Source: Patescibacteria group bacterium (GTDB taxonomy: Bacteria > Patescibacteriota > Minisyncoccia > Phycocordibacterales > PALSA-1337). Taken from it: DNA of 52,919 nucleotides. The first letter of the stretch is position 1; each line of letters opens with the position of its first letter. The DNA lies in NCBI GenBank assembly GCA_038064415.1, contig JBBTTD010000006.1, positions 1-52,919 on the forward strand. Direction: 5' to 3'. Both the position numbers and the translations under genes were made by a program. Positions 452 to 39,631 of the stretch are shown here, in pieces. The notes under the pieces were generated by a model. The model did no database searches, was not told where the DNA came from, and saw nothing but the letters and a program-made list of their open reading frames with translations.

Positions 452-1714
452 ATGTTAGACACAACCCTCGCCAAAATCCGCCAATACATTCCAGTCAAAA
501 TGTTCAGTAAAATCCAGCCTGTTTACCACTGGACACTTTCATTTTTGGCGGCAGTTTGGTACCAATTCCCTTCTAGAAAAATCAAAGTCATAGCGGTTAC
601 GGGCACAAAGGGTAAAAGTTCAACTGTGGAAATACTCAACGCCATTCTAGAAGAAGCCGGCTACAAAACCGCTCTTTCAAATACCATTCGCTTCAAGGTT
701 GGGGATATTTCTTCGGAAAATCTTTACAAAATGAGTATGCCTGGAAGATTTTTCGTCCAAAAACTTATTCGTAAAGCAGTAAATAGTAATTGTCAGTATA
801 TAATTTTAGAAATGACATCACAGGGAGCGCTTTTATATCGCCACAGATTTATTGACCTAGACGCTTTTATTTTCACGAATTTATCCCCTGAACACATTGA
901 AGCACATGGCTCATATGAAAAATATATTGAATCAAAAGTTTCAATCGTCAGAAGAATGGAAAAATCCAAGAAAAAAGACAAAGCTATAATTACCAACGCT
1001 AACGATAAAGAAAGTTACAGATTCAACGAATGTAAAGTAGATAGAAAAATCAGCTATGGAATAAATGATGTTGAACCGTATGAAATAAAAAAAGACGGGC
1101 TAATATTTACTTTTAGCGGTCAATTGGTCAATTCTCATCTTTCCGGACTGTTTAATTTGTACAATATCTTGGCCGCGATCACATGCGCCAGAAGTCAAAA
1201 TATCTCTGACGATTCAATAATTCGCGCTATTGAAAAGTTTGACGGCATCCCAGGTCGTGTACAAAAAATAGTCGCTGGTCAAGATTTCACCGTCATTGTT
1301 GACTACGCGCATACTCCAGACTCGCTGGAGAAATTGTATCAAATCTTCCAATCGTCCAGAAATATCTGCGTACTTGGTGGAACTGGCGGTGGGCGTGACA
1401 CTTGGAAGCGTGCTGTCATGGGTAAAATTGCCGACAATTATTGCGATGAGATTATTTTAACCGACGAAGACCCATATGATGAAGATCCACAAAAAATCAT
1501 TGCCGATGTGGCAAAAGGAGTGACATCTCAATTACCACATATTATCTTGGACCGCCGCGAAGCGATTCGTGAGGCCATAAAACACGCCAAAACTGGCGAC
1601 ACCGTTCTGATTACCGGAAAAGGAACAGATCCATATATTATGGGACCAAAAGGAACAAAAACGCTTTGGAATGACGCGAGAGTGGCCAAAGAAGAACTAG
1701 AGAAAATAATTTAA
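452..1714 (+). CDS. murE: Mur ligase, MurE-like (UDP-MurNAc-tripeptide synthetase)
   Basis: P-loop VTGTKGKSST, FTNLSPEH, DYAHTPD, LITGKG motifs. Confidence 0.85.
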   Translation: MLDTTLAKIRQYIPVKMFSKIQPVYHWTLSFLAAVWYQFPSRKIKVIAVTGTKGKSSTVEILNAILEEAGYKTALSNTIRFKVGDISSENLYKMSMPGRFFVQKLIRKAVNSNCQYIILEMTSQGALLYRHRFIDLDAFIFTNLSPEHIEAHGSYEKYIESKVSIVRRMEKSKKKDKAIITNANDKESYRFNECKVDRKISYGINDVEPYEIKKDGLIFTFSGQLVNSHLSGLFNLYNILAAITCARSQNISDDSIIRAIEKFDGIPGRVQKIVAGQDFTVIVDYAHTPDSLEKLYQIFQSSRNICVLGGTGGGRDTWKRAVMGKIADNYCDEIILTDEDPYDEDPQKIIADVAKGVTSQLPHIILDRREAIREAIKHAKTGDTVLITGKGTDPYIMGPKGTKTLWNDARVAKEELEKII

Positions 1715-1764
1715 GCCAAATAAACTTACTTTTTTATGCTAAAAACTGTTTGAGCGACTAGAAA

Positions 1765-3024
1765 TTAAATCGTCTTAACTCCATACTCCCGATTCAAGGC
1801 CTCTACTGTTTGTGGCCCAGTAATCCCCTTTTCTCCAGTGATGCCATGCTTATTTTGAAACGCTTCTAACGCCGCTTTAGTACAAACTCCAATTTTACCA
1901 GTGCGCGGACAATCATTTTTACTTTTTTGTCCTGGAGGATATAGACCGTCAGCGAGTAGCGCTGTTTGAAGAGCATAAACATCTTGTGATGTGCTAGATT
2001 TTTCTGAAATAGGAACGGTCCAGGTATGCGGTAGAACTAGAGTATCATAAGTTGAAGCTAATGAACTTTGTCCTTTAAAATTAAAAAAATCTTCTAGCCC
2101 TAGATATGTCTGAAATGCCAAGTCTTTCAGAGCAAGTTCGCGTGTATTCGGATCAGTAAATTGAGTTTCATAAATATAGCCATATTCAATAAGCAAGCTT
2201 GCCGCGTCTGCGGTGTTATTTGCTCCAATTGATATAAGTTCACGCTCGTCAACAATCCCTTCAGATTCACCGGGTAAATCACTGATTGGGTTATATTTTC
2301 TAAGACGCGTAAAAAGCGTCTCGGAAATCGCGCGTGTCGTCGTGCTGTTGAGATATTGCGCTTCTGGAGTATAAATCGTAAAACCACTGTATTCGCCCGG
2401 TGATCTTTGAGAATGTCCGGGATGATCGTTAAAGTGAATGTGGATGGCAATATCAATATTATTTTCATTTGACCATTTTGTAATTCCATACAGACGATAT
2501 GCCACATTATCTGGAGCGGAATTGTGATAAACTTTAGGTTTATTTGATGGTTGTGGAGTAGTAATTCGCCTCAAAGACTCTTCTTTATAAGATTTCTGCC
2601 AATTAATTATGTCATCCCAATAGTTCTTAAAATATGATGAAAATATCGGGTTCCAAGAATTTGCGCCGCGTGTTGTAACAACTTCATATTTTTTATTTTC
2701 ATTCAAAAATCCTGACAAATAATTGGCTAGTGAAACGGTAAGGTCTCGCTCTTTTATTGAACCATATTCAGCGCCTCCATAGTTTGGCTCGTGGCCAGGG
2801 ACCAATAGAATACGAACTCTGGTAACACTGTTTGGTGTTTCAGTTGAATATTTATTTTGCAGTTGAGTGATTGTTCTTGGGTTGTGTATAACTATGGCAG
2901 CTAGTTGGCTACCAATATTCTTCATTCCCGCAAGGATATAGTCAGCTTGCTCGGGAAAGTTGAGCGCCAACCACGGAACTATAAACACGCTTATTGAAAC
3001 AGCAACTGCTATATAGTAACGCAT
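1765..3024 (-). CDS. N-acetylmuramoyl-L-alanine amidase (Amidase_3) with C-terminal peptidoglycan-binding domain
   Basis: LVPGH, ERDL, HFN and LIEYGY Zn/catalytic motifs; C-terminal DVYALQ..TG.IG..T..AL..FQ...G..G PG-binding pattern; N-terminal hydrophobic segment. Start at ATG 3024 preferred over 3066. Confidence 0.85.
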   Translation of the reverse strand: MRYYIAVAVSISVFIVPWLALNFPEQADYILAGMKNIGSQLAAIVIHNPRTITQLQNKYSTETPNSVTRVRILLVPGHEPNYGGAEYGSIKERDLTVSLANYLSGFLNENKKYEVVTTRGANSWNPIFSSYFKNYWDDIINWQKSYKEESLRRITTPQPSNKPKVYHNSAPDNVAYRLYGITKWSNENNIDIAIHIHFNDHPGHSQRSPGEYSGFTIYTPEAQYLNSTTTRAISETLFTRLRKYNPISDLPGESEGIVDERELISIGANNTADAASLLIEYGYIYETQFTDPNTRELALKDLAFQTYLGLEDFFNFKGQSSLASTYDTLVLPHTWTVPISEKSSTSQDVYALQTALLADGLYPPGQKSKNDCPRTGKIGVCTKAALEAFQNKHGITGEKGITGPQTVEALNREYGVKTI

Positions 3025-3095
3025 ATGCGACTTATTATAGCAAAATATTTGCATACTCACTTGCAAATTCGGTTGTTTTGATTTCTACTTATGAG

Positions 3096-6608: not shown

Positions 6609-9116
6609 TCATTTCAACTCCCCCCAATTGTTACCAATAGACGCCAAGGCCTTCATAATCACTCCTTTAGTATCTTTTGTGCTCATGACTGATTCCATAA
6701 TTTTTGTAATCTCAACAGCAACTTTTTCAGTTTTATCTTCTCTTATTTCATAGACCAACTCATCATGAACTTGAAGCAGTGGGAAAACATCGTCCTCTAA
6801 TTTCTCGCGACTGATGTACTCGTCAATACGAACCATTGCGAGCTTGATAATATCAGCTCCAGTGCCTTGAATCGGAGAATTTATAGCCATTCGTTCAGCT
6901 GAAGCGCGAATGTATGGAATCTTTGATTTAATTCCTTCAAAATAACGGCGACGCCCAAAGAATGTCTCTGTAAACCCCCGACGGGTCGTTTCTACCTTCA
7001 CTGAATTTAAATATTGCGCCAAAGTGGAAAATGTAGAAAAATAATCGTTATAAAACTTCTGCGCTTCGGCTCGATTGGTTCCGATACTTTGTTGTAACGC
7101 ATTGACTCCCATGCCATAAATAATTCCGAAATTAATAGCTTTGGCGTTGCGGCGCATTTCGGCAGTAACTTTATCTATTGGTACTTTAAACACAAAAGAC
7201 GCCACAGAAGAATGAACATCTTCGCCTTTTTGGAAAATTTCAATCATTTTTTTATCACCAGATATGAACGCGGCGATCCGGAGTTCCACTTGGGAATAAT
7301 CAAAACTACATAATCTGAATCCTTTATCGGCAATAAATGCTCCACGAATAGCACGGCCAAGTTCGGTTTTTATTGGAATGTTTTGTAGATTTGGGTTTTG
7401 TGAAGCCATTCGTCCGGTTGTTGAACCAGAAGAAATCAAATTTGAATGTAATCGATCATTGATATCAAGAAGTGGTGGAATCGCGTCAATATAAGTTGAA
7501 AGTAATTTTGCCAATTCCCGATATTCAAATATCATCGGAACTATCGGGTGCAAGTCACGCAGTTTTTCCAGCTCTGATTCCCTAGTTGAGCGTGCGCCAC
7601 CAGCGGTTTTCTTCATATTCTTGACCGTAAGATTCATTTTATCAAAAAGAATTTCACCAAGTTGCTTTGGTGAATTTATATTAAATTCTACGCCGGCATG
7701 TTTCCAGATTTCCTTTTCCAAACGAGTTAATTCAGTATGGTATGTCTTTGATAGTTTTGAGAGTAATTCCTTATCAATTTTAATTCCATGTTTTTCCATT
7801 TTTTCTATTATTGGAATAAGCGGCAACTCAATGTCTTCATAGACTTTTCTGAGTCCTCTTTTATCAAGTTCAGTAAATATTACTCTTTTTGCTTCTTCAA
7901 ATTTATCTGTATTGGCGAAATTGAGGATATCTTCCAGTGTTGGATTAGTTAAATTTGAATTTACAAGCCATAATGCAAGAGCGGTTTTTTGAGATTCATC
8001 CGCAAGGTCGTCTTTTCTCAACATCGCCTGACTCGGTAAACTTAATAGTTGATTTCGCGACATCTGCGAAGAGAGTTCAGTATCATTGTTCCTTTCGCTA
8101 TTGGACATGGGTATATTATTTCCAACCACTTTCTGCAACCTCTGAACTAAAGTTCTAAATTCCAATTCACTCCAAAGTTGGGAAATTTTTTTAATATCTA
8201 GATTTTCCCTGAAAGTTTTCTCCGGTAAGACGAATGTTATCGGCGCGTCTCTGCGTATTGTCGCCAACATTTTACTGAATTCCGCTTCTTCTTTGTTATC
8301 TTTTAATAATTGGATAATTCTGGGGGTGATCCCAGTTTTTTTGAACTTTTCTTCATTCCCCGCCTCCAATTCTTCATATATTTTTTCAATGGATCCAAAG
8401 TTTGTGATCAAAGTCGTGGCGGTTTTTTCACCGACGCCTTTTATGCCGACAATATTGTCAGACGGATCGCCACGCAATCCCTTATAATCAGCCATAAGCT
8501 CTGGTCCAAAACCAAAACGATCGTAAACTGCTTTTTCATTATAGATAATTGTGTCTTTGATTCCCTTTTTAAAGGTATAGACCTTAACTTCGTCGCCTTG
8601 GACCAGTTGTAATGTGTCCATATCTCCCGAAGCGATGATTATTTCCGTATCTTTTTTTGGTTTTGGTTTTTTGGTTTTTAGTTTGTCTAGGATTTCGGGT
8701 TTAGAATTTTGTATTTTTCCCTTTATCTGTTCCACTATCGTCCCCAACATGTCATCCGCCTCAAATCCTTCCTTGTCATATATTGGGATATTCAAAGCAT
8801 GAAAAATATCTCTAGACCTTATCAATTGTTTGATCAGATCGTCTTCAATTTCTTTTCTTTGAGCTTTATATTCTTTGTAAGCTTTGTGGCGATGGGTTGG
8901 ACCTTTGACATCATAGCAAGCAACCACATAGTCAGGTTTTAAGTCCTCAATAATCTTAATTAACATTGAAGAAAGACCATACAAAGCTCCGGTTGGTTCA
9001 CCTTTGGCGGTAGAAAAATCCGGTAAGGCGTGGTAAGCGCGATGGAGAATAGCGTGTGAATCCAAAAGAATAAGTCTCTTTGGTGTAGTATTTTCTTGTT
9101 TTTTCTTTACCGCCAT
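6609..9116 (-). CDS. polA: DNA polymerase I (5'-3' exonuclease plus polymerase; 3'-5' exonuclease vestigial), with two in-frame insertions
   Basis: LDSHAILHRAYHA, EADD, GDMD, GDPSDNI, TGRMASQNPNLQNIP, DYSQVELR, AKAINFGIIYG, QVHDEL. Start 9116 (MAVKK) preferred over 9131. Confidence 0.95.
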   Translation of the reverse strand: MAVKKKQENTTPKRLILLDSHAILHRAYHALPDFSTAKGEPTGALYGLSSMLIKIIEDLKPDYVVACYDVKGPTHRHKAYKEYKAQRKEIEDDLIKQLIRSRDIFHALNIPIYDKEGFEADDMLGTIVEQIKGKIQNSKPEILDKLKTKKPKPKKDTEIIIASGDMDTLQLVQGDEVKVYTFKKGIKDTIIYNEKAVYDRFGFGPELMADYKGLRGDPSDNIVGIKGVGEKTATTLITNFGSIEKIYEELEAGNEEKFKKTGITPRIIQLLKDNKEEAEFSKMLATIRRDAPITFVLPEKTFRENLDIKKISQLWSELEFRTLVQRLQKVVGNNIPMSNSERNNDTELSSQMSRNQLLSLPSQAMLRKDDLADESQKTALALWLVNSNLTNPTLEDILNFANTDKFEEAKRVIFTELDKRGLRKVYEDIELPLIPIIEKMEKHGIKIDKELLSKLSKTYHTELTRLEKEIWKHAGVEFNINSPKQLGEILFDKMNLTVKNMKKTAGGARSTRESELEKLRDLHPIVPMIFEYRELAKLLSTYIDAIPPLLDINDRLHSNLISSGSTTGRMASQNPNLQNIPIKTELGRAIRGAFIADKGFRLCSFDYSQVELRIAAFISGDKKMIEIFQKGEDVHSSVASFVFKVPIDKVTAEMRRNAKAINFGIIYGMGVNALQQSIGTNRAEAQKFYNDYFSTFSTLAQYLNSVKVETTRRGFTETFFGRRRYFEGIKSKIPYIRASAERMAINSPIQGTGADIIKLAMVRIDEYISREKLEDDVFPLLQVHDELVYEIREDKTEKVAVEITKIMESVMSTKDTKGVIMKALASIGNNWGELK
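8002..8079 (-). repeat. Decayed copy of the CGGAG-core palindromic element, in frame within polA
   Basis: Minus strand TGAACTCTCTTCGCAG-atgtcg-N31-cgatgt-TGAG-AAAAGA-CGACCTTGC matches the cores at 37551-37658 and 39295-39404. Confidence 0.8.
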
Positions 9117-9176
9117 ATAATCATTGTACATTATTTATAAGAAGTTATTCACAACTAAAATAGAAAACGGGCTAAG

Positions 9177-15167: not shown

Positions 15168-15298
15168 CATATCCCCGCACTACATAATACTTCTTTGAAG
15201 CATTGCCGGAGGCCTAAACAGATATTCATCATTCTTTAGCCATTGATTTTAGACAACAGGCGTCGCTTCAAAGAAGTATTATGTAGTGCGGGGATATG
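15168..15298 (+). repeat. Palindromic element A: perfect 34-bp inverted arms around a CGGAG...CGT core
   Basis: 15168-15201 is the exact reverse complement of 15265-15298; CGGAG at 15207, CGT at 15261. Confidence 0.9.
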
Positions 15299-21258: not shown

Positions 21259-21418
21259 TAAATAAAGTGATAAAGAGTTTGGTGAATATATATTTTATAC
21301 AAATTGCGTTATGTCCCCAACAAAACCTAGACGATGGGGCAACATAATTTGTATAAAATATATATTCACCAAACTCTAAAACTTGATTTATTAAAATATT
21401 TAAGCTATTGTTTGTGTC

Positions 21419-21946: not shown

Positions 21947-22696
21947 ATGTATCACGAATATATATTTCGCCCTCTCTACAATGGCCTCGTTGGTATTATG
22001 GATATTATTCCATGGGTTGATGTTGGTGTTGCTGTCGTTATTTTTACCATTATTGTCAAACTTATCCTATTTCCCCTATCAAAAGCGTCACTGTTGACCC
22101 AAGTTCGCATGAAGGAAATTGAGCCGGAGGCAAACAAAATTAAAGCCCAATACGCGTCCAATAAACAAACACAGGCCCTGAAAATCATGGAGCTTTACAA
22201 AGAGAAGAGAATCAAACCATTTTCTGGTGTTTTACTTCTTTTTATTCAACTTCCCATCCTTTTCGCTCTTATTTCGGTGTTTTATAAAATTATTCCAACC
22301 ATTGATGTCGCCCAACTTTATAGTTTTATAGCTGTTCCCAACAACCCATCTTTTCATTTTCTTGGACTTATTGATTTGAGTCAAAAAAGTTTTATTCTCT
22401 CACTAGCGACGGCAGTAATTCAATTTTTGCAAATGCATTTTTCACCAGCCATGCGCCAACAAAAACTCGCCAGCAACCAACCCCAAACAAACCCAGCCGA
22501 CTTTGCTTCACAACTATCTGGCTCCATGACAAAACAAATGATGTACTTACTGCCCATACTTGCTTTTGCCTCAACATATTGGATTATTCCAGCAACGTTT
22601 CCTCAGGCGGCGTCAATCATAGCTATTTATTGGTCAGTTAGTACTTTATTTACATTAGTGCAAGAGCTTTATATTAGAAAGAGACACTTAAAGTAA
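21947..22696 (+). CDS. yidC: YidC/Oxa1 membrane protein insertase (short form)
   Basis: FT..VKLIL.PL, LYKE..IKPF.G.L...IQLPI, IYW..S..F...QE motifs. Confidence 0.92.
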   Translation: MYHEYIFRPLYNGLVGIMDIIPWVDVGVAVVIFTIIVKLILFPLSKASLLTQVRMKEIEPEANKIKAQYASNKQTQALKIMELYKEKRIKPFSGVLLLFIQLPILFALISVFYKIIPTIDVAQLYSFIAVPNNPSFHFLGLIDLSQKSFILSLATAVIQFLQMHFSPAMRQQKLASNQPQTNPADFASQLSGSMTKQMMYLLPILAFASTYWIIPATFPQAASIIAIYWSVSTLFTLVQELYIRKRHLK

Positions 22697-22813
22697 CAAG
22701 AAACATGTGTAGTTCGGATACGTTGCGGAGCGCGACGGCGCGAGCATAGGAATTTTTCAGCAGAAAAATATCCGTGTATCCGAACTACACATGTTTCTTG
22801 TTACTTTAAGTGT
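22684..22813 (+). repeat. Palindromic element B: perfect 38-bp inverted arms around a CGGAG/CGAG/CGT core, between convergent genes
   Basis: 22684-22721 is the exact reverse complement of 22776-22813; the left arm includes the yidC stop codon. Confidence 0.9.
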
Positions 22814-37118: not shown

Positions 37119-39224
37119 TTAAAAATCAATAAATATCGCTTTCACGCCCGTTGGTTTTTCTGGAATACCCTCATCAAGTAACTTACTGTCTATGTCGGCA
37201 ATAAACTCTGAAGGGGTATTGATTCTTTTAGTTCCATATATTGTGCGAATAAGAGTATGACTCAAATGTACCTTCTTTTTAGCGCGAGTCAATGCTACAT
37301 AAAAAAGACGACGCTCTTCTTCCGCTTCCGATCCACTCGTTTCTTCATCGTCAGAGTGTTTGAACGGAAAAAGTTCCTGTTCCATTCCAGCGATAAAGAC
37401 ATGATCAAACTCCAGTCCTTTTGACGCATGAACTGTCATTAGTTTTACCGCATCCTCGTCTTTTTGTAGGTCATCTTGGTCTGTGGCTAAGGCGGCGTTT
37501 TCCAGGAATTTTTCTATTCCCGAAACGCCCAACTTTACAGATAAGAGTTCTGAACCCTCTTCGGAGCGCCGCTGGATTGCGTATTCATTTACTCCGAATG
37601 GCGGCGCGAGAAAAGACGGCTTTGCGAGCGATTCTGTTGTGCGAGCAAAGCCGATCGTGGGTGAAGAACTCTTATCTGTAAAGTTGGGCGTTTCGGATAT
37701 TGTAAGATCATCATACTGAGTCGCGACGGAAACTAATTCACGAATATTAAGTAGTCGCTCTAAATCTTCTGAATCGCCATCCAAAAGAAGCTTTTCTATT
37801 CCTGTTTCCTGAATAACAAATTTAATTGCTTCTGATGGCTTTTTTTCCATTATTTCATGTTGGATATCATCAAGTAATTTCCAAAAACCATCAATCTTCA
37901 ACCTCATGACTGGCGGGATCAAGTCTGGTCTGGCCGACATTATTTTGGCAATCGTGGCTTTACCTATCCCACGGATCGGAACATTGATTATCCTGCCAAT
38001 ATCACCCCAAGACTCTCTATTTAACGACGCCCTAATGTATGAAAGGACATCCTTAACCTCTTTCCTCTCAAAAAACCTAACTCCAACTAATTGGTAGGGT
38101 ATGTTTTTTTTAATGAATGCCTCTTCAATAACTCGTGATTGAAAATTAGTTCTATACAATACGGCAATATTTCTAGCTGATGTGCCACTTTCAATTAGTG
38201 ATCTGGCAGAATCGGCGATATTTCTAGCCTCATCTAGTTCTGTGTACGCGGCATTCAGGACAATCTTCTCCCCTTGAGCATTATCTGTGTGTAGAGTTTT
38301 CTTTTTTCGCAAATTATTCTTTTCTATGATGCTGTTTGCTGCGGCTAAAATTGTTTTTGTTGAACGATAATTTTTTTCTAAAGCGATCACTGTTGTGTTT
38401 GGGTAATCTTTTTCAAAGTTAAGAATATTTTCGATTGTCGCGCCGCGCCAGCTGTAGATATTCTGGTCAGCGTCGCCGACTACGCAAATATTCCTATGCG
38501 ATTCCGCTAAATATTTTGTTATTTTATATTGCACTCTATTTGTGTCTTGATATTCATCAACATGAATGTATTTCCAGATTGATTGGTAGCGTTTGCGAAC
38601 CGTTTCATTTTTCTCCAAAATATTCATGGTCTTTAAGAGCAGGTCGTCAAAATCCAAAGCTTTTTCTTTGGCTAAAATCGCGTCGTATTTTCTCCAGACA
38701 CTGGCGATTATTCCTTGGATATGATTTTTTGCCTCATCTGAATATTCTGAATGTCCGATCGCATTCCCCTTTGCGCGCGAAATCAAATTGAGGATCATTC
38801 CTGGTTCGTATTGTTCCGTGTTTATTGAAAGTTCCTCCATGGCTTGTTTTATTGCTTTTTTAGAATCTGATCGGTCAAAAATTGTGAAATGTCTGGTTAG
38901 TCCGACCAATTGAGTATTTTCTTTGATGATATGTACTCCAAGCGCGTGAAATGTGCTTAAAAACGGCCGTTCACTGATTGAAATAGGAATATTCAAGCTT
39001 TCATCCTCGGATATTAATGTTTCTACCCGTTCACGCATCTCTTTTGCCGCCTTATTTGTGAAAGTTATTGCCAAAATTTCATGTGGAGCCACGCCCTTTT
39101 TAATTAGATTGATGATTCTATGAGTTATTACCCTAGTTTTACCAGTTCCCGCTCCAGCGATAATAAGAAGTGGACCTTCAGTGGTTTCCACTGCGCGTTG
39201 TTGGGCTTCATTGAGGGTTGTCAT
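37119..39224 (-). CDS. pcrA: UvrD/PcrA ATP-dependent DNA helicase with a 59-codon element insertion
   Basis: AGAGTGKT, FTNKAA.EM, VDEYQDTN, VGDADQ.IY.WRGA, NYRS, MT.HASKGLEF, EERRLFYVA.TRA. Start 39224. Confidence 0.96.
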   Translation of the reverse strand: MTTLNEAQQRAVETTEGPLLIIAGAGTGKTRVITHRIINLIKKGVAPHEILAITFTNKAAKEMRERVETLISEDESLNIPISISERPFLSTFHALGVHIIKENTQLVGLTRHFTIFDRSDSKKAIKQAMEELSINTEQYEPGMILNLISRAKGNAIGHSEYSDEAKNHIQGIIASVWRKYDAILAKEKALDFDDLLLKTMNILEKNETVRKRYQSIWKYIHVDEYQDTNRVQYKITKYLAESHRNICVVGDADQNIYSWRGATIENILNFEKDYPNTTVIALEKNYRSTKTILAAANSIIEKNNLRKKKTLHTDNAQGEKIVLNAAYTELDEARNIADSARSLIESGTSARNIAVLYRTNFQSRVIEEAFIKKNIPYQLVGVRFFERKEVKDVLSYIRASLNRESWGDIGRIINVPIRGIGKATIAKIMSARPDLIPPVMRLKIDGFWKLLDDIQHEIMEKKPSEAIKFVIQETGIEKLLLDGDSEDLERLLNIRELVSVATQYDDLTISETPNFTDKSSSPTIGFARTTESLAKPSFLAPPFGVNEYAIQRRSEEGSELLSVKLGVSGIEKFLENAALATDQDDLQKDEDAVKLMTVHASKGLEFDHVFIAGMEQELFPFKHSDDEETSGSEAEEERRLFYVALTRAKKKVHLSHTLIRTIYGTKRINTPSEFIADIDSKLLDEGIPEKPTGVKAIFIDF
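37520..37696 (+). mobile_element. Palindromic element C (177 bp, perfect 32-bp arms) inserted in frame in pcrA
   Basis: 37520-37551 is the exact reverse complement of 37665-37696; 177 is divisible by 3; core matches element D. Mobility is inferred. Confidence 0.85.
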
Positions 39225-39271
39225 GCGGGTTAGTTTAACACATTGAAATGAATCGTTTTTGATTATGGTTA

Positions 39272-39434
39272 GGTGGGGTGGAGACAATTCCCCTTGAACC
39301 CTCTTCGGAGGCGTCGGGTAACTATAGTTTAACTATAAGATGTACACGATGCCGAGAAAAGAAAACTCTGCGAGCTTTTCTGTAATGCGAGCAGAGTTTA
39401 TCGTGGGTTCAGGGGGAATTGTCTCCACCCCACC
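39272..39434 (+). repeat. Palindromic element D (30-bp arms, 29/30) upstream of pcrA
   Basis: 39272-39301 pairs with 39405-39434 with one T-G; core in the same register as C. Confidence 0.9.
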
Positions 39435-39631
39435 ACACCATTTCCCAACATTCATTGACATTACAGCAAGTATTGTGACTGTGTATATCTTTCATTGACA
39501 ACACAACTCCACCTGCTACCCTTAATACATACCCACAGAGGTATTTACGGTGATATGGCTTTACAGAGCCATTTATTTATTAAAGGGTATAACACGGCGA
39601 GGAAGCAAAACAGTTATGATTGATTTGCAGG

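Follow-up and report, generated by a model that had tools for sequence, protein, structure and literature searches.

A palindromic element with a conserved one-strand fold, carried in frame by the pcrA helicase gene of a patescibacterium

Introduction

The Rickettsia palindromic elements (RPE-1 to RPE-10) are palindromes of ~100-180 bp that are dispersed through reduced genomes, often lying in frame within housekeeping genes, where they are read through as an extra peptide that is compatible with the fold of the host protein; they do so without a transposase of their own (PMC10969869). Here we describe a palindromic element of 177 nucleotides (nt) that sits in frame within the gene for a UvrD/PcrA-family helicase, on a 52,919-nt stretch of DNA from a Patescibacteria group bacterium (contig JBBTTD010000006.1; this whole stretch is referred to as the ‘window’ throughout). 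By analogy, its behaviour is closest to that of the Rickettsia elements, as the feature by which these are recognised, a palindrome that is in frame and read through, is also found in the pcrA element. We regard it as one member of a family of structure-defined palindromic elements that is widespread in Patescibacteria, each made up of a Y-shaped core of 110-117 nt and a closing stem that is specific to its locus; no published description of such elements in Patescibacteria was found in the literature that we searched. Our preferred reading, to which we would assign a probability of roughly two in three, is that of a selfish and non-autonomous element that is copied or maintained by way of its folded strand, which serves as the substrate, and that is tolerated where it falls within permissive loops.

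The likeness to RPEs does not extend to architecture. An RPE is conserved over its whole length and specifies one conserved peptide, whereas here it is the core only that is conserved, and two peptides are encoded; the locus-specific arms, the covarying and strand-specific three-way junction, and the unrelated host phylum serve to separate the two further. The distinction is one of description, there being no RPE models in Rfam. An initial annotation of this DNA, made from its sequence, had proposed selfish DNA that creates new protein sequence in the manner of RPEs; the likeness in behaviour is borne out, with in-frame copies in eight other housekeeping genes, while the architecture differs.

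[quoted passage not shown] MITEs, however, have common terminal inverted repeats along with target-site duplications, neither of which is seen in the present family, and the DNA examined yielded no insertion sequence that might be their parent.

Results and discussion

An in-frame element in the 2B subdomain of PcrA

The helicase gene lies on the minus strand of the window (37119-39224) and encodes a protein of 701 amino acids (aa) from an ATG at position 39224. This is probably the true start, with the listed TTG at 39287 being an over-extension into an arm of a second element (element D, described below); the relatives of this PcrA begin at MxxLNEAQQ. All of the helicase motifs read in the translation are intact (AGAGTGKT, TFTNKAA, DEYQD, VGDADQNIYSWRGA, KNYRS, VHASKGLEF and VALTRAKK), the GIG motif of subdomain 2B is present (RGIGKAT), and precomputed Pfam annotation assigns both UvrD-helicase and UvrD_C domains to the protein.

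Within this gene, the element occupies positions 37520-37696 (177 nt), with its structural strand, which we call the CGGAG strand, being the plus strand of the window and so antisense to pcrA. On that strand, a locus-specific left arm of 32 nt (37520-37551) is followed by the conserved core (37552-37662; 111 nt, GAACCC...CGTGGGT), which forms a three-way junction, and by a right arm (37665-37696) that is the perfect reverse complement of the left over all 32 nt (CCGAAACGCCCAACTTTACAGATAAGAGTTCT). In none of 100 shuffles of the window did the 32-mer of the arms occur twice. The element has a GC content of 52% (39% for the window) and a predicted folding energy of -105.3 kcal/mol for the plus strand and -97.7 kcal/mol for the minus strand, with z ~ -13 relative to shuffled sequences. 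It amounts to 59 codons and is stop-free in the minus-strand UvrD/PcrA reading frame, in which the right arm translates to SETPNFTDKSS and the left to ELLSVKLGVS, such that the protein reads ...QYDDLTI-SETPNFTDKSS SPTIGFARTTESLAKPSFLAPPFGVNEYAIQRRSEEGS ELLSVKLGVS-GIEKFLENAAL. In each of these respects (perfect 32-nt arms, 59 codons, no stop, helicase motifs intact) the initial annotation was correct. Two ‘mirror’ open reading frames (ORFs), at 37483-37719 (+) and 37421-37681 (+), lie opposite pcrA and would encode 78 and 86 aa, respectively; they exist because the pcrA element is also open in the flip frame, and are not genes, though they might be mis-annotated as such.

The window protein matches both PcrA from G. 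stearothermophilus (PDB 1PJR/3PJR, E 1.5e-145) and UvrD (2IS1, E 3.5e-110), in each case with alignment on both sides of the insert. The counterpart of query residue 570 in PcrA is residue 531, which lies inside the 2B subdomain (residues ~386-549). An AlphaFold2 model sets the insert between helices 485-504 and 557-581, the second of which is the last helix of 2B; residues 510-562 are modelled with a predicted local distance difference test score (pLDDT) of 29-37 and without secondary structure. The insert is thus predicted, on the basis of this model, to be a disordered surface loop of ~57 residues that directly precedes the last 2B helix. Both the alignment and the modelled placement agree with the earlier assignment of the insert to a position near the end of 2B, the regulatory, swivelling subdomain of PcrA (PMC6158625).

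A palindrome of this kind might conceivably be a chimera generated by assembly, as k-mer assemblers break at the 32-nt arms; indeed, Logan contigs (k=31) break at exactly this point, such that the orientation of the core cannot be read from them. The window sequence derives from Hainich groundwater metagenomes. A protein identical to the window PcrA is encoded on seven contigs, and of the words sampled from the stretch, 98% are present in eight DNA runs that belong to two studies; in these eight runs, the depth of the core is about that of its flanks and the joint expected of an empty site was not seen. Together with orthologous copies in independent assemblies from other sites, and with an exact look-up in a collection of 15 billion proteins, in which the native protein is present and its flipped-core counterpart absent, these observations make an artefact of assembly scarcely credible. 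The absence of the flipped-core protein also means that there is no sign of orientation polymorphism in the window population.

One strand of the core specifies a three-way junction

A scan of metagenome contigs for three invariant core motifs recovered 25 loci, 23 of them convincing; the pattern had no matches (0) in viral contigs, and blastn against phages and plasmids gave none. Fold statistics and a covariance model were built on 29 copies. The consensus begins with the long closing stem and a 2x2 G·A loop that joins arms to core (37552-53 with 37663-64 in the pcrA element), continues through helix P1 (ACCC/GGGU) and then opens into a three-way junction with invariant strands GAACCCUCUUCG-AG, GAGAAAAGA and AUCGUGGGU. 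One branch carries an internal loop and stem 1 (37566-37607, +), a hairpin of GCGCCGC / GCGGCGC with a 28-nt loop, in which 6 of the 7 pairs show double compensatory changes. The other, P3 and stem 2 (37615-37657, +), pairs GACGGCTTTGC with GCAAAGCCG-A-TC beneath an 11-nt apical loop and shows double changes in 10 of its 13 pairs; here a tandem G·A internal loop (GA 37626-27 and GA 37643-44) is kept while the helices on either side of it covary.

Statistically, the fold is well separated from chance: 94.5% of cells are paired, as against 70.5% in shuffles (none of 500 reaching the observed value) and 38-45% when the partners are slid relative to one another, and the covariation score is 0.638 versus 0.183 in shuffles. 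The core as a whole has 33 invariant columns and three tandem G·A motifs. When non-Watson-Crick oppositions in the arms of all copies are counted on the CGGAG strand, there are 28 of G·T, 3 of A·C and 7 of other kinds, and this large excess of G·T over A·C implies that one strand folds. The covariance model, in turn, scores the pcrA element at 141 bits on the plus strand and 11 bits on the minus strand, which assigns the family-specific fold, tandem G·A pairs included, to the CGGAG (+) strand. The claim that the tandem G·A pairs form on this strand, antisense to pcrA, is therefore upheld by the model; the corollary, that the fold is no part of the host message, is right for the window lineage but not in general, as the CGGAG strand has the sense of the mRNA in three orthologous loci (L086, L088 and L089).

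Searching Rfam at permissive thresholds returned only SSRC8_2, which we rejected as a chance match, its 19.5 bits falling short of the gathering score (72), and over the whole window Rfam detected tRNAs only. By inspection, a kink-turn reading of the GGA/GA loop is a misfit to the consensus.

If the element acts as single-stranded DNA (ssDNA), then the REP/REPIN-RAYT and IS200/IS605 systems would provide the closest mechanistic analogy. They too have structure in one strand, tolerate G·T imperfections, make no target duplication and lack terminal inverted repeats in the transposase sense, and the strand-specific hairpin that marks this class is what the G·T to A·C ratio and the two model scores describe here. 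Against this, REPs are just 20-40 nt in length and bear conserved sequence tags, where the recognised part of the present element would be a 111-nt three-way junction, and IS200/IS605 elements have conserved end hairpins beside tnpA and a fixed tetranucleotide target; no Y1/HUH gene is known to go with the present element, though no genome-wide search for one was made. A conserved, covarying and strand-specific core within locus-specific arms is a combination matched by none of the descriptions of RPEs, MITEs, REP/RAYT or IS200/IS605.

Conservation lies in the nucleic acid

Among PcrA orthologues, the cores are 75-83% identical (65% in one pair) and the flanking coding sequence 68-79%, falling to 37-52% at its third codon positions; the arms have a mean identity of 54%. 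The same nucleotides are kept whichever of the two strands is translated, from which it follows that the constraint is not on the peptide. Compensatory changes preserve the helices of the core, and its length and identity are equal in both orientations. As judged from these sequence comparisons, then, the constraint is on nucleic acid and not on peptide. The initial annotation had allowed for the opposite, a homologous peptide held in orthologues by selection on the protein: the homologous insert is indeed there, and the protein constraint is not, as two unrelated peptides occupy the site.

Such a pattern brings us to the main rival of a selfish element, namely a functional structured RNA that is hosted in genes, in which the transcript of the CGGAG strand is the product and coding regions are only landing places. 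This would be a three-way junction with tandem G·A pairs atop a long stem, released, for instance, by RNase III cutting within the arms independently of their sequence, and bound by protein. The core (~111 nt, heavily covarying, with a junction, 33 invariant columns and three tandem G·A motifs) is much what one would expect of it, as are G·U-type wobbles that are tolerated on one strand only, arms that need complementarity and nothing else, in the way of a processing stem, and many intergenic copies lying just before or after co-oriented genes (orientation relative to the neighbouring genes, with two testable cases, was uninformative). It fares less well inside genes, where the 8 sense and 9 antisense copies (see below) would oblige half of them to depend on antisense transcription of a repair gene, and where cleavage of the stem in a sense copy would destroy the mRNA of the host. 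Moreover, no conserved promoter is carried, no Rfam match was obtained, and the insert has often been deleted in sister lineages, which speaks against the product being essential at the pcrA locus. We therefore consider a functional RNA to be unlikely, whilst regarding it as the most serious of the competing explanations.

Copies inside genes keep open frames

There are 17 distinct copies inside long ORFs: seven in PcrA, two each in UvrA and ArgRS, and one each in UvrB, PolA, DnaE, RecO, RecG and SecA (hosts other than PcrA being confirmed by Pfam). Eight are in the sense and nine in the antisense orientation. The same UvrA loop holds a copy in two lineages, as does one loop of ArgRS, and 7 of the 9 host gene families are involved in replication or repair.

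All 17 of these copies have a core whose length is a multiple of three (111 or 114 nt), as against 1 of 12 intergenic copies, the other intergenic cores being of 110, 112, 113, 115 or 116 nt. All 17 are also stop-free in the frame of the host, where intergenic copies mostly carry stops in the sense frame. A single frame is used in each orientation, giving E-P-S-S...I-V-G-E in sense and S-P-T-I...S-E-E-G-S in antisense, and both flip frames are free of stops in 13 of the 17, including all seven PcrA copies; the unused sense frame is open in 7 of 9 antisense copies, versus 2 of 12 intergenic copies in which the sense frame is open. Lengths in multiples of three, together with open frames that include the one not in use, are as would be expected if the copies are translated and switches of orientation recur over evolution, and argue against removal of the insert before translation. 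On these grounds of sequence, we take the insert to be translated as part of PcrA.

An intron, an intein or translational bypass, any of which would leave PcrA unaltered, might be invoked in view of the hairpin of about -98 kcal/mol that the coding strand would form in the mRNA, an obstacle to ribosomes. The in-ORF copies, uniformly in multiples of three and stop-free where intergenic copies are mostly not, are as expected only if translated; no intein or group I/II intron signatures were found, and either orientation is tolerated. Removal before the protein is made is accordingly a reading to which we give almost no credence.

Five loci (L099, L103, L112, L113 and L115) all come from one metagenome, Ga0172379, in which UvrA, UvrB and DnaE have near-identical cores and PolA and ArgRS related ones. 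If these copies belong to one genome, then they would be the best candidate for recent spread of the element between genes.

Age and inversion at the pcrA site

We compared the window PcrA with its 120 closest relatives. In 68 of the 120, the site is empty (QYDHLPPEEGIE-type), with ~5 residues between ...QYD and GIE(A/K)(F/L)L.NAAL; the modal length of relatives is 644 aa against 701 aa in the window PcrA, and a related locus, L002, likewise has an empty site. These figures support the original view of the element as an insertion relative to the ancestral PcrA. Alignment of relatives, which had been suggested as a means of defining both the empty site and any target duplication, delivered only the first: across 29 copies the longest flanking direct repeat was 0-3 nt, which is at chance level, so that no target-site duplication was found, and nor was a conserved flanking tetranucleotide seen in the same check.

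The closest of these relatives have the site filled, in two forms: P0002-P0005 insert SSPTIG...SFL...RRSEEGS, the same form as in the window, and P0006, P0033 and P0038 insert EPSSERRW...ARKDGFAS...PIVGE, which is the product of the opposite strand of the window element. An intact core is present at the pcrA site in seven lineages and measures exactly 111 nt in all seven; its CGGAG strand is the antisense strand of pcrA in four of them (the window, L082, L083 and L085) and the sense strand in the other three (L086, L088 and L089). Elsewhere only remnants are seen: the left arm plus 35 nt of core in L090, arms in L092 together with the final 16 nt of a core in sense orientation, a partial copy in L087 and a degenerate 25-aa stretch in L091.

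When the insert was masked and a tree of PcrA built, a single clade took in every intact, remnant and short-extra state (32 rows; support of 97 in the Shimodaira-Hasegawa-like approximate likelihood ratio test, SH-aLRT), and the sister of this clade is nearly all empty. Sense and antisense states are interleaved on this tree, and close sisters differ in state; P0002 is intact where P0024 has 16 aa, and P0003 has an intact antisense copy where P0014 has a sense remnant. In a tree of the cores themselves, those from PcrA group together, again with sense and antisense interleaved. Our reading is that the element made a single, old entry into a permissive surface loop of 2B, in an ancestor from which one PcrA clade of the Paceibacteria/Parcubacteria descends, and that it has been inherited vertically at this site from then on, turning around there on two or three occasions at the least and being eroded by in-frame deletions in most descendants of the clade.

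That an intact mobile element was inserted recently into pcrA of the window lineage, its perfect arms being a mark of youth, is a proposal already largely refuted, and we consider it very improbable. The arms do match at 32 of 32 positions, no other copy has as high a score with the family model as that of the window, and the window PcrA is on a long branch of the PcrA tree, all of which might be taken to favour a late arrival; this has to be set against orthologous copies at the same site in six or more other lineages, the arms of which are homologous, against the clustering of PcrA cores with one another, and against the resemblance of the window arms to a homogenised form of imperfect ancestral arms. 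If ‘intact element inserted’ was meant as a recent event, it cannot stand, given an element that is orthologous across the PcrA clade, intact in seven lineages and decayed in many more.

The same data bear on whether the insert has been domesticated, either as a peptide or hairpin that regulates PcrA, possibly by modulating 2B swivelling or the binding of partners, or as a shared cis element that throttles the translation of repair genes. Its position in the subdomain with a regulatory role (PMC6158625), the 7 of 9 host families that act in replication or repair, which is reminiscent of a damage regulon, and the strong nucleotide conservation lend the idea some appeal. Sister lineages, however, have two unrelated peptides at the one site, the peptide is predicted to be disordered, close relatives have lost most or all of the insert, a different core type is found at the site in L093, and intergenic copies adjoin genes that are unrelated. 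Taking both sides together, domestication seems improbable.

Locus-specific arms and a proposed role of template switching

Outside the core, there is little that copies have in common. The copies in UvrA (L099), UvrB (L115) and DnaE (L103) have cores that are 90-93% identical within outer arms that match at chance level (36-58%), and L097 and L114 have cores that are 92% identical within unrelated arms; termini common to copies comprise only the innermost few bases (YYCY-GA...GA-RGRR, the hyphens marking the boundaries), or ~15 nt in one subgroup. In PcrA orthologues the arms are homologous and are evolving at roughly the rate of synonymous sites.

Five of the seven PcrA copies have a conserved patch of arm mismatches, seen as G·A oppositions on the CGGAG strand. 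As this patch follows the CGGAG strand rather than the strand of the gene, a flip must invert the inner arms along with the core. The window copy is without the G·A patch, and its left and right arms are both similar to a single arm of L082, from which we conclude that its perfect 32/32 arms are derived, through homogenisation, and are not a sign of youth. The perfection of the arms that was remarked on at the outset is thus real, but was not the original state, as most orthologues are imperfect.

Template switching between inverted repeats is known to homogenise the arms and to invert the spacer reversibly, in coding DNA as elsewhere (PMC8604942, PMC7202029), and in one documented case lengthened arms from 5 to 16 bp (PMC8604942). 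We propose that the perfect arms of the window copy, the locus-specific outer arms and the reversible flips are all by-products of template switching during replication; by analogy, we infer that the process can operate over a spacer of 113 nt. Its dynamics would explain perfect arms, the lengthening of arms by mirroring of the flank and reversible inversion without the need for a dedicated enzyme. In E. coli, the loss of exonucleases (xonA, exoX) is reported to increase such switching at quasipalindromes. As a mutational process and not an element family, it leaves unexplained both the conserved core and its spread to many genes.

A selfish element and what it would mean

Returning to our preferred reading of a selfish, non-autonomous element, we propose that the fold of the CGGAG strand would be needed for the copying or maintenance of the element, either as ssDNA or as RNA, being recognised by some factor, and that the host would merely tolerate its presence. 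The apparent bias towards repair genes may then reflect proteins that are long, modular and dispensable in the short term, with linkers that are tolerant of insertion. The neighbours of nine intergenic copies look, by eye, like housekeeping genes.

Several observations sit uneasily with this proposal. No partner enzyme or autonomous element was identified, a genome-wide search for one not having been made, and nucleotide conservation at this divergence exceeds what inert selfish DNA usually shows, so that a host function is possible. It is puzzling that a fold specific to one strand should be kept equally well in both orientations inside genes, and the skew of the hosts (7 of 9 families) towards repair may itself be a sign of function. 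Documented inversions by template switching have spacers of a few bases and not of 113 nt. Lastly, no RNA runs were listed either for the gene or for the element by itself, and the case for translation, and the choice between RNA and ssDNA, follow from sequence logic alone.

A more ambitious possibility, which we put forward tentatively and at less than even odds, is that these elements make up a structure-specified class in Patescibacteria, mobile or self-maintaining, in which the core moves, the stem is written locally, the whole can flip and the preference for repair genes reflects copying. It may be that only the ~111-nt core is moved or copied, at most with ~15 nt of inner stem; that the core is recognised on one strand, as ssDNA or RNA, by an enzyme; and that the closing stem is made anew at each site by fold-back or template-switch synthesis. 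Flips may be reversible and, with both frames open inside genes, the element may survive either way round. The preference for replication and repair genes may, likewise, reflect where or how the element is copied, and not tolerance alone.

If our preferred reading is right, then the tiny genomes of Patescibacteria, or the Candidate Phyla Radiation (CPR), carry folded elements that rewrite surface loops in proteins of replication, repair, secretion and translation. In terms of protein evolution, a single segment of DNA would be readable both ways inside essential genes, as a source of disordered segments in streamlined genomes. For the biology of mobile elements, structure-guided mobility of DNA or RNA would become directly testable; no transposase was found in the DNA examined. 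For annotation, the elements would matter in that they make many CPR proteins longer, give rise to mirror ORFs and cause k-mer assemblies to break where their arms lie.

Further copies and neighbouring features

The window holds a second full member of the family, element D (39265-39441, +), with a 113-nt core and unrelated 37-nt arms, which scores 122 bits; its core is the same as that of the pcrA copy, with compensatory changes. Its place is the intergenic region that separates pcrA from a divergent LysM/M23 peptidase gene, 41 nt upstream of the pcrA start. Orthologues of element D are found upstream of pcrA in L082 (606-743, -) and L086 (781-920, -), making three species in all, in each of which the CGGAG strand is co-oriented with the peptidase gene. 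In one subclade (L087, 487-951; L091, 486-980) a HIT-family gene lies between the LysM peptidase gene and pcrA, at a position that holds element D or nothing in other species.

Element B (22684-22813, +) is a miniature variant with perfect 38-nt arms, which matches the model over 22704-22793 at 31.8 bits (E 6.5e-7); its arms overlap the end of the upstream gene. A decayed copy (7995-8079, -; 24.4 bits, E 6.5e-5) is found in the polA ORF (6609-9131), in frame and in the sense orientation, reading ELSSQ...LRKDD, with stem 2 deleted. The linker in which this remnant falls separates the 5'-3' exonuclease domain from the polymerase domain; in PolA of L112 (the counterpart of L092), that site is occupied by an intact antisense copy.

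Two further palindromes are less readily placed. Element A (15168-15298), with unique 51-nt arms, has a marginal model score that is equal on both strands; membership of the family was not demonstrated for it, and we treat it as a palindrome. A long hairpin at 21274-21377, with unique 37-nt arms, has no family-model score. A profile of the 38-aa sense peptide, run against 1.84 billion representative proteins, returned one spurious repeat protein (P0121), the profile being too weak. The idea that copies lie on the lagging-strand template was dropped, as GC skew in the window gave no usable origin.

The loop of PcrA in which the element sits has also received other sequences. In L093 (gene 1001-3064), the 2B-loop site holds a different type of palindromic core, within palindromic arms; the peptide of this second type, DSEG(H/R)FG(P/A)SEGE..., occurs at the PcrA site of P0029/P0032 and that of the L093-type core also in SecA of L101, at residues ~230-270. 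With the PcrA site held by a second core type, it is a landing place common to more than one element family. The arms of L093 and L085 are ~70% alike on one side only, which is suggestive without being shown. Unrelated inserts of 40-85 aa are found at the PcrA loop of P0008, P0025, P0046, P0053 and P0095, including in the otherwise empty sister clade. Finally, directly downstream of pcrA in L090 (3078-3995), a pair of genes resembling the AbiEi/AbiEii toxin-antitoxin system takes the place of the usual rsmA (RrnaAD).

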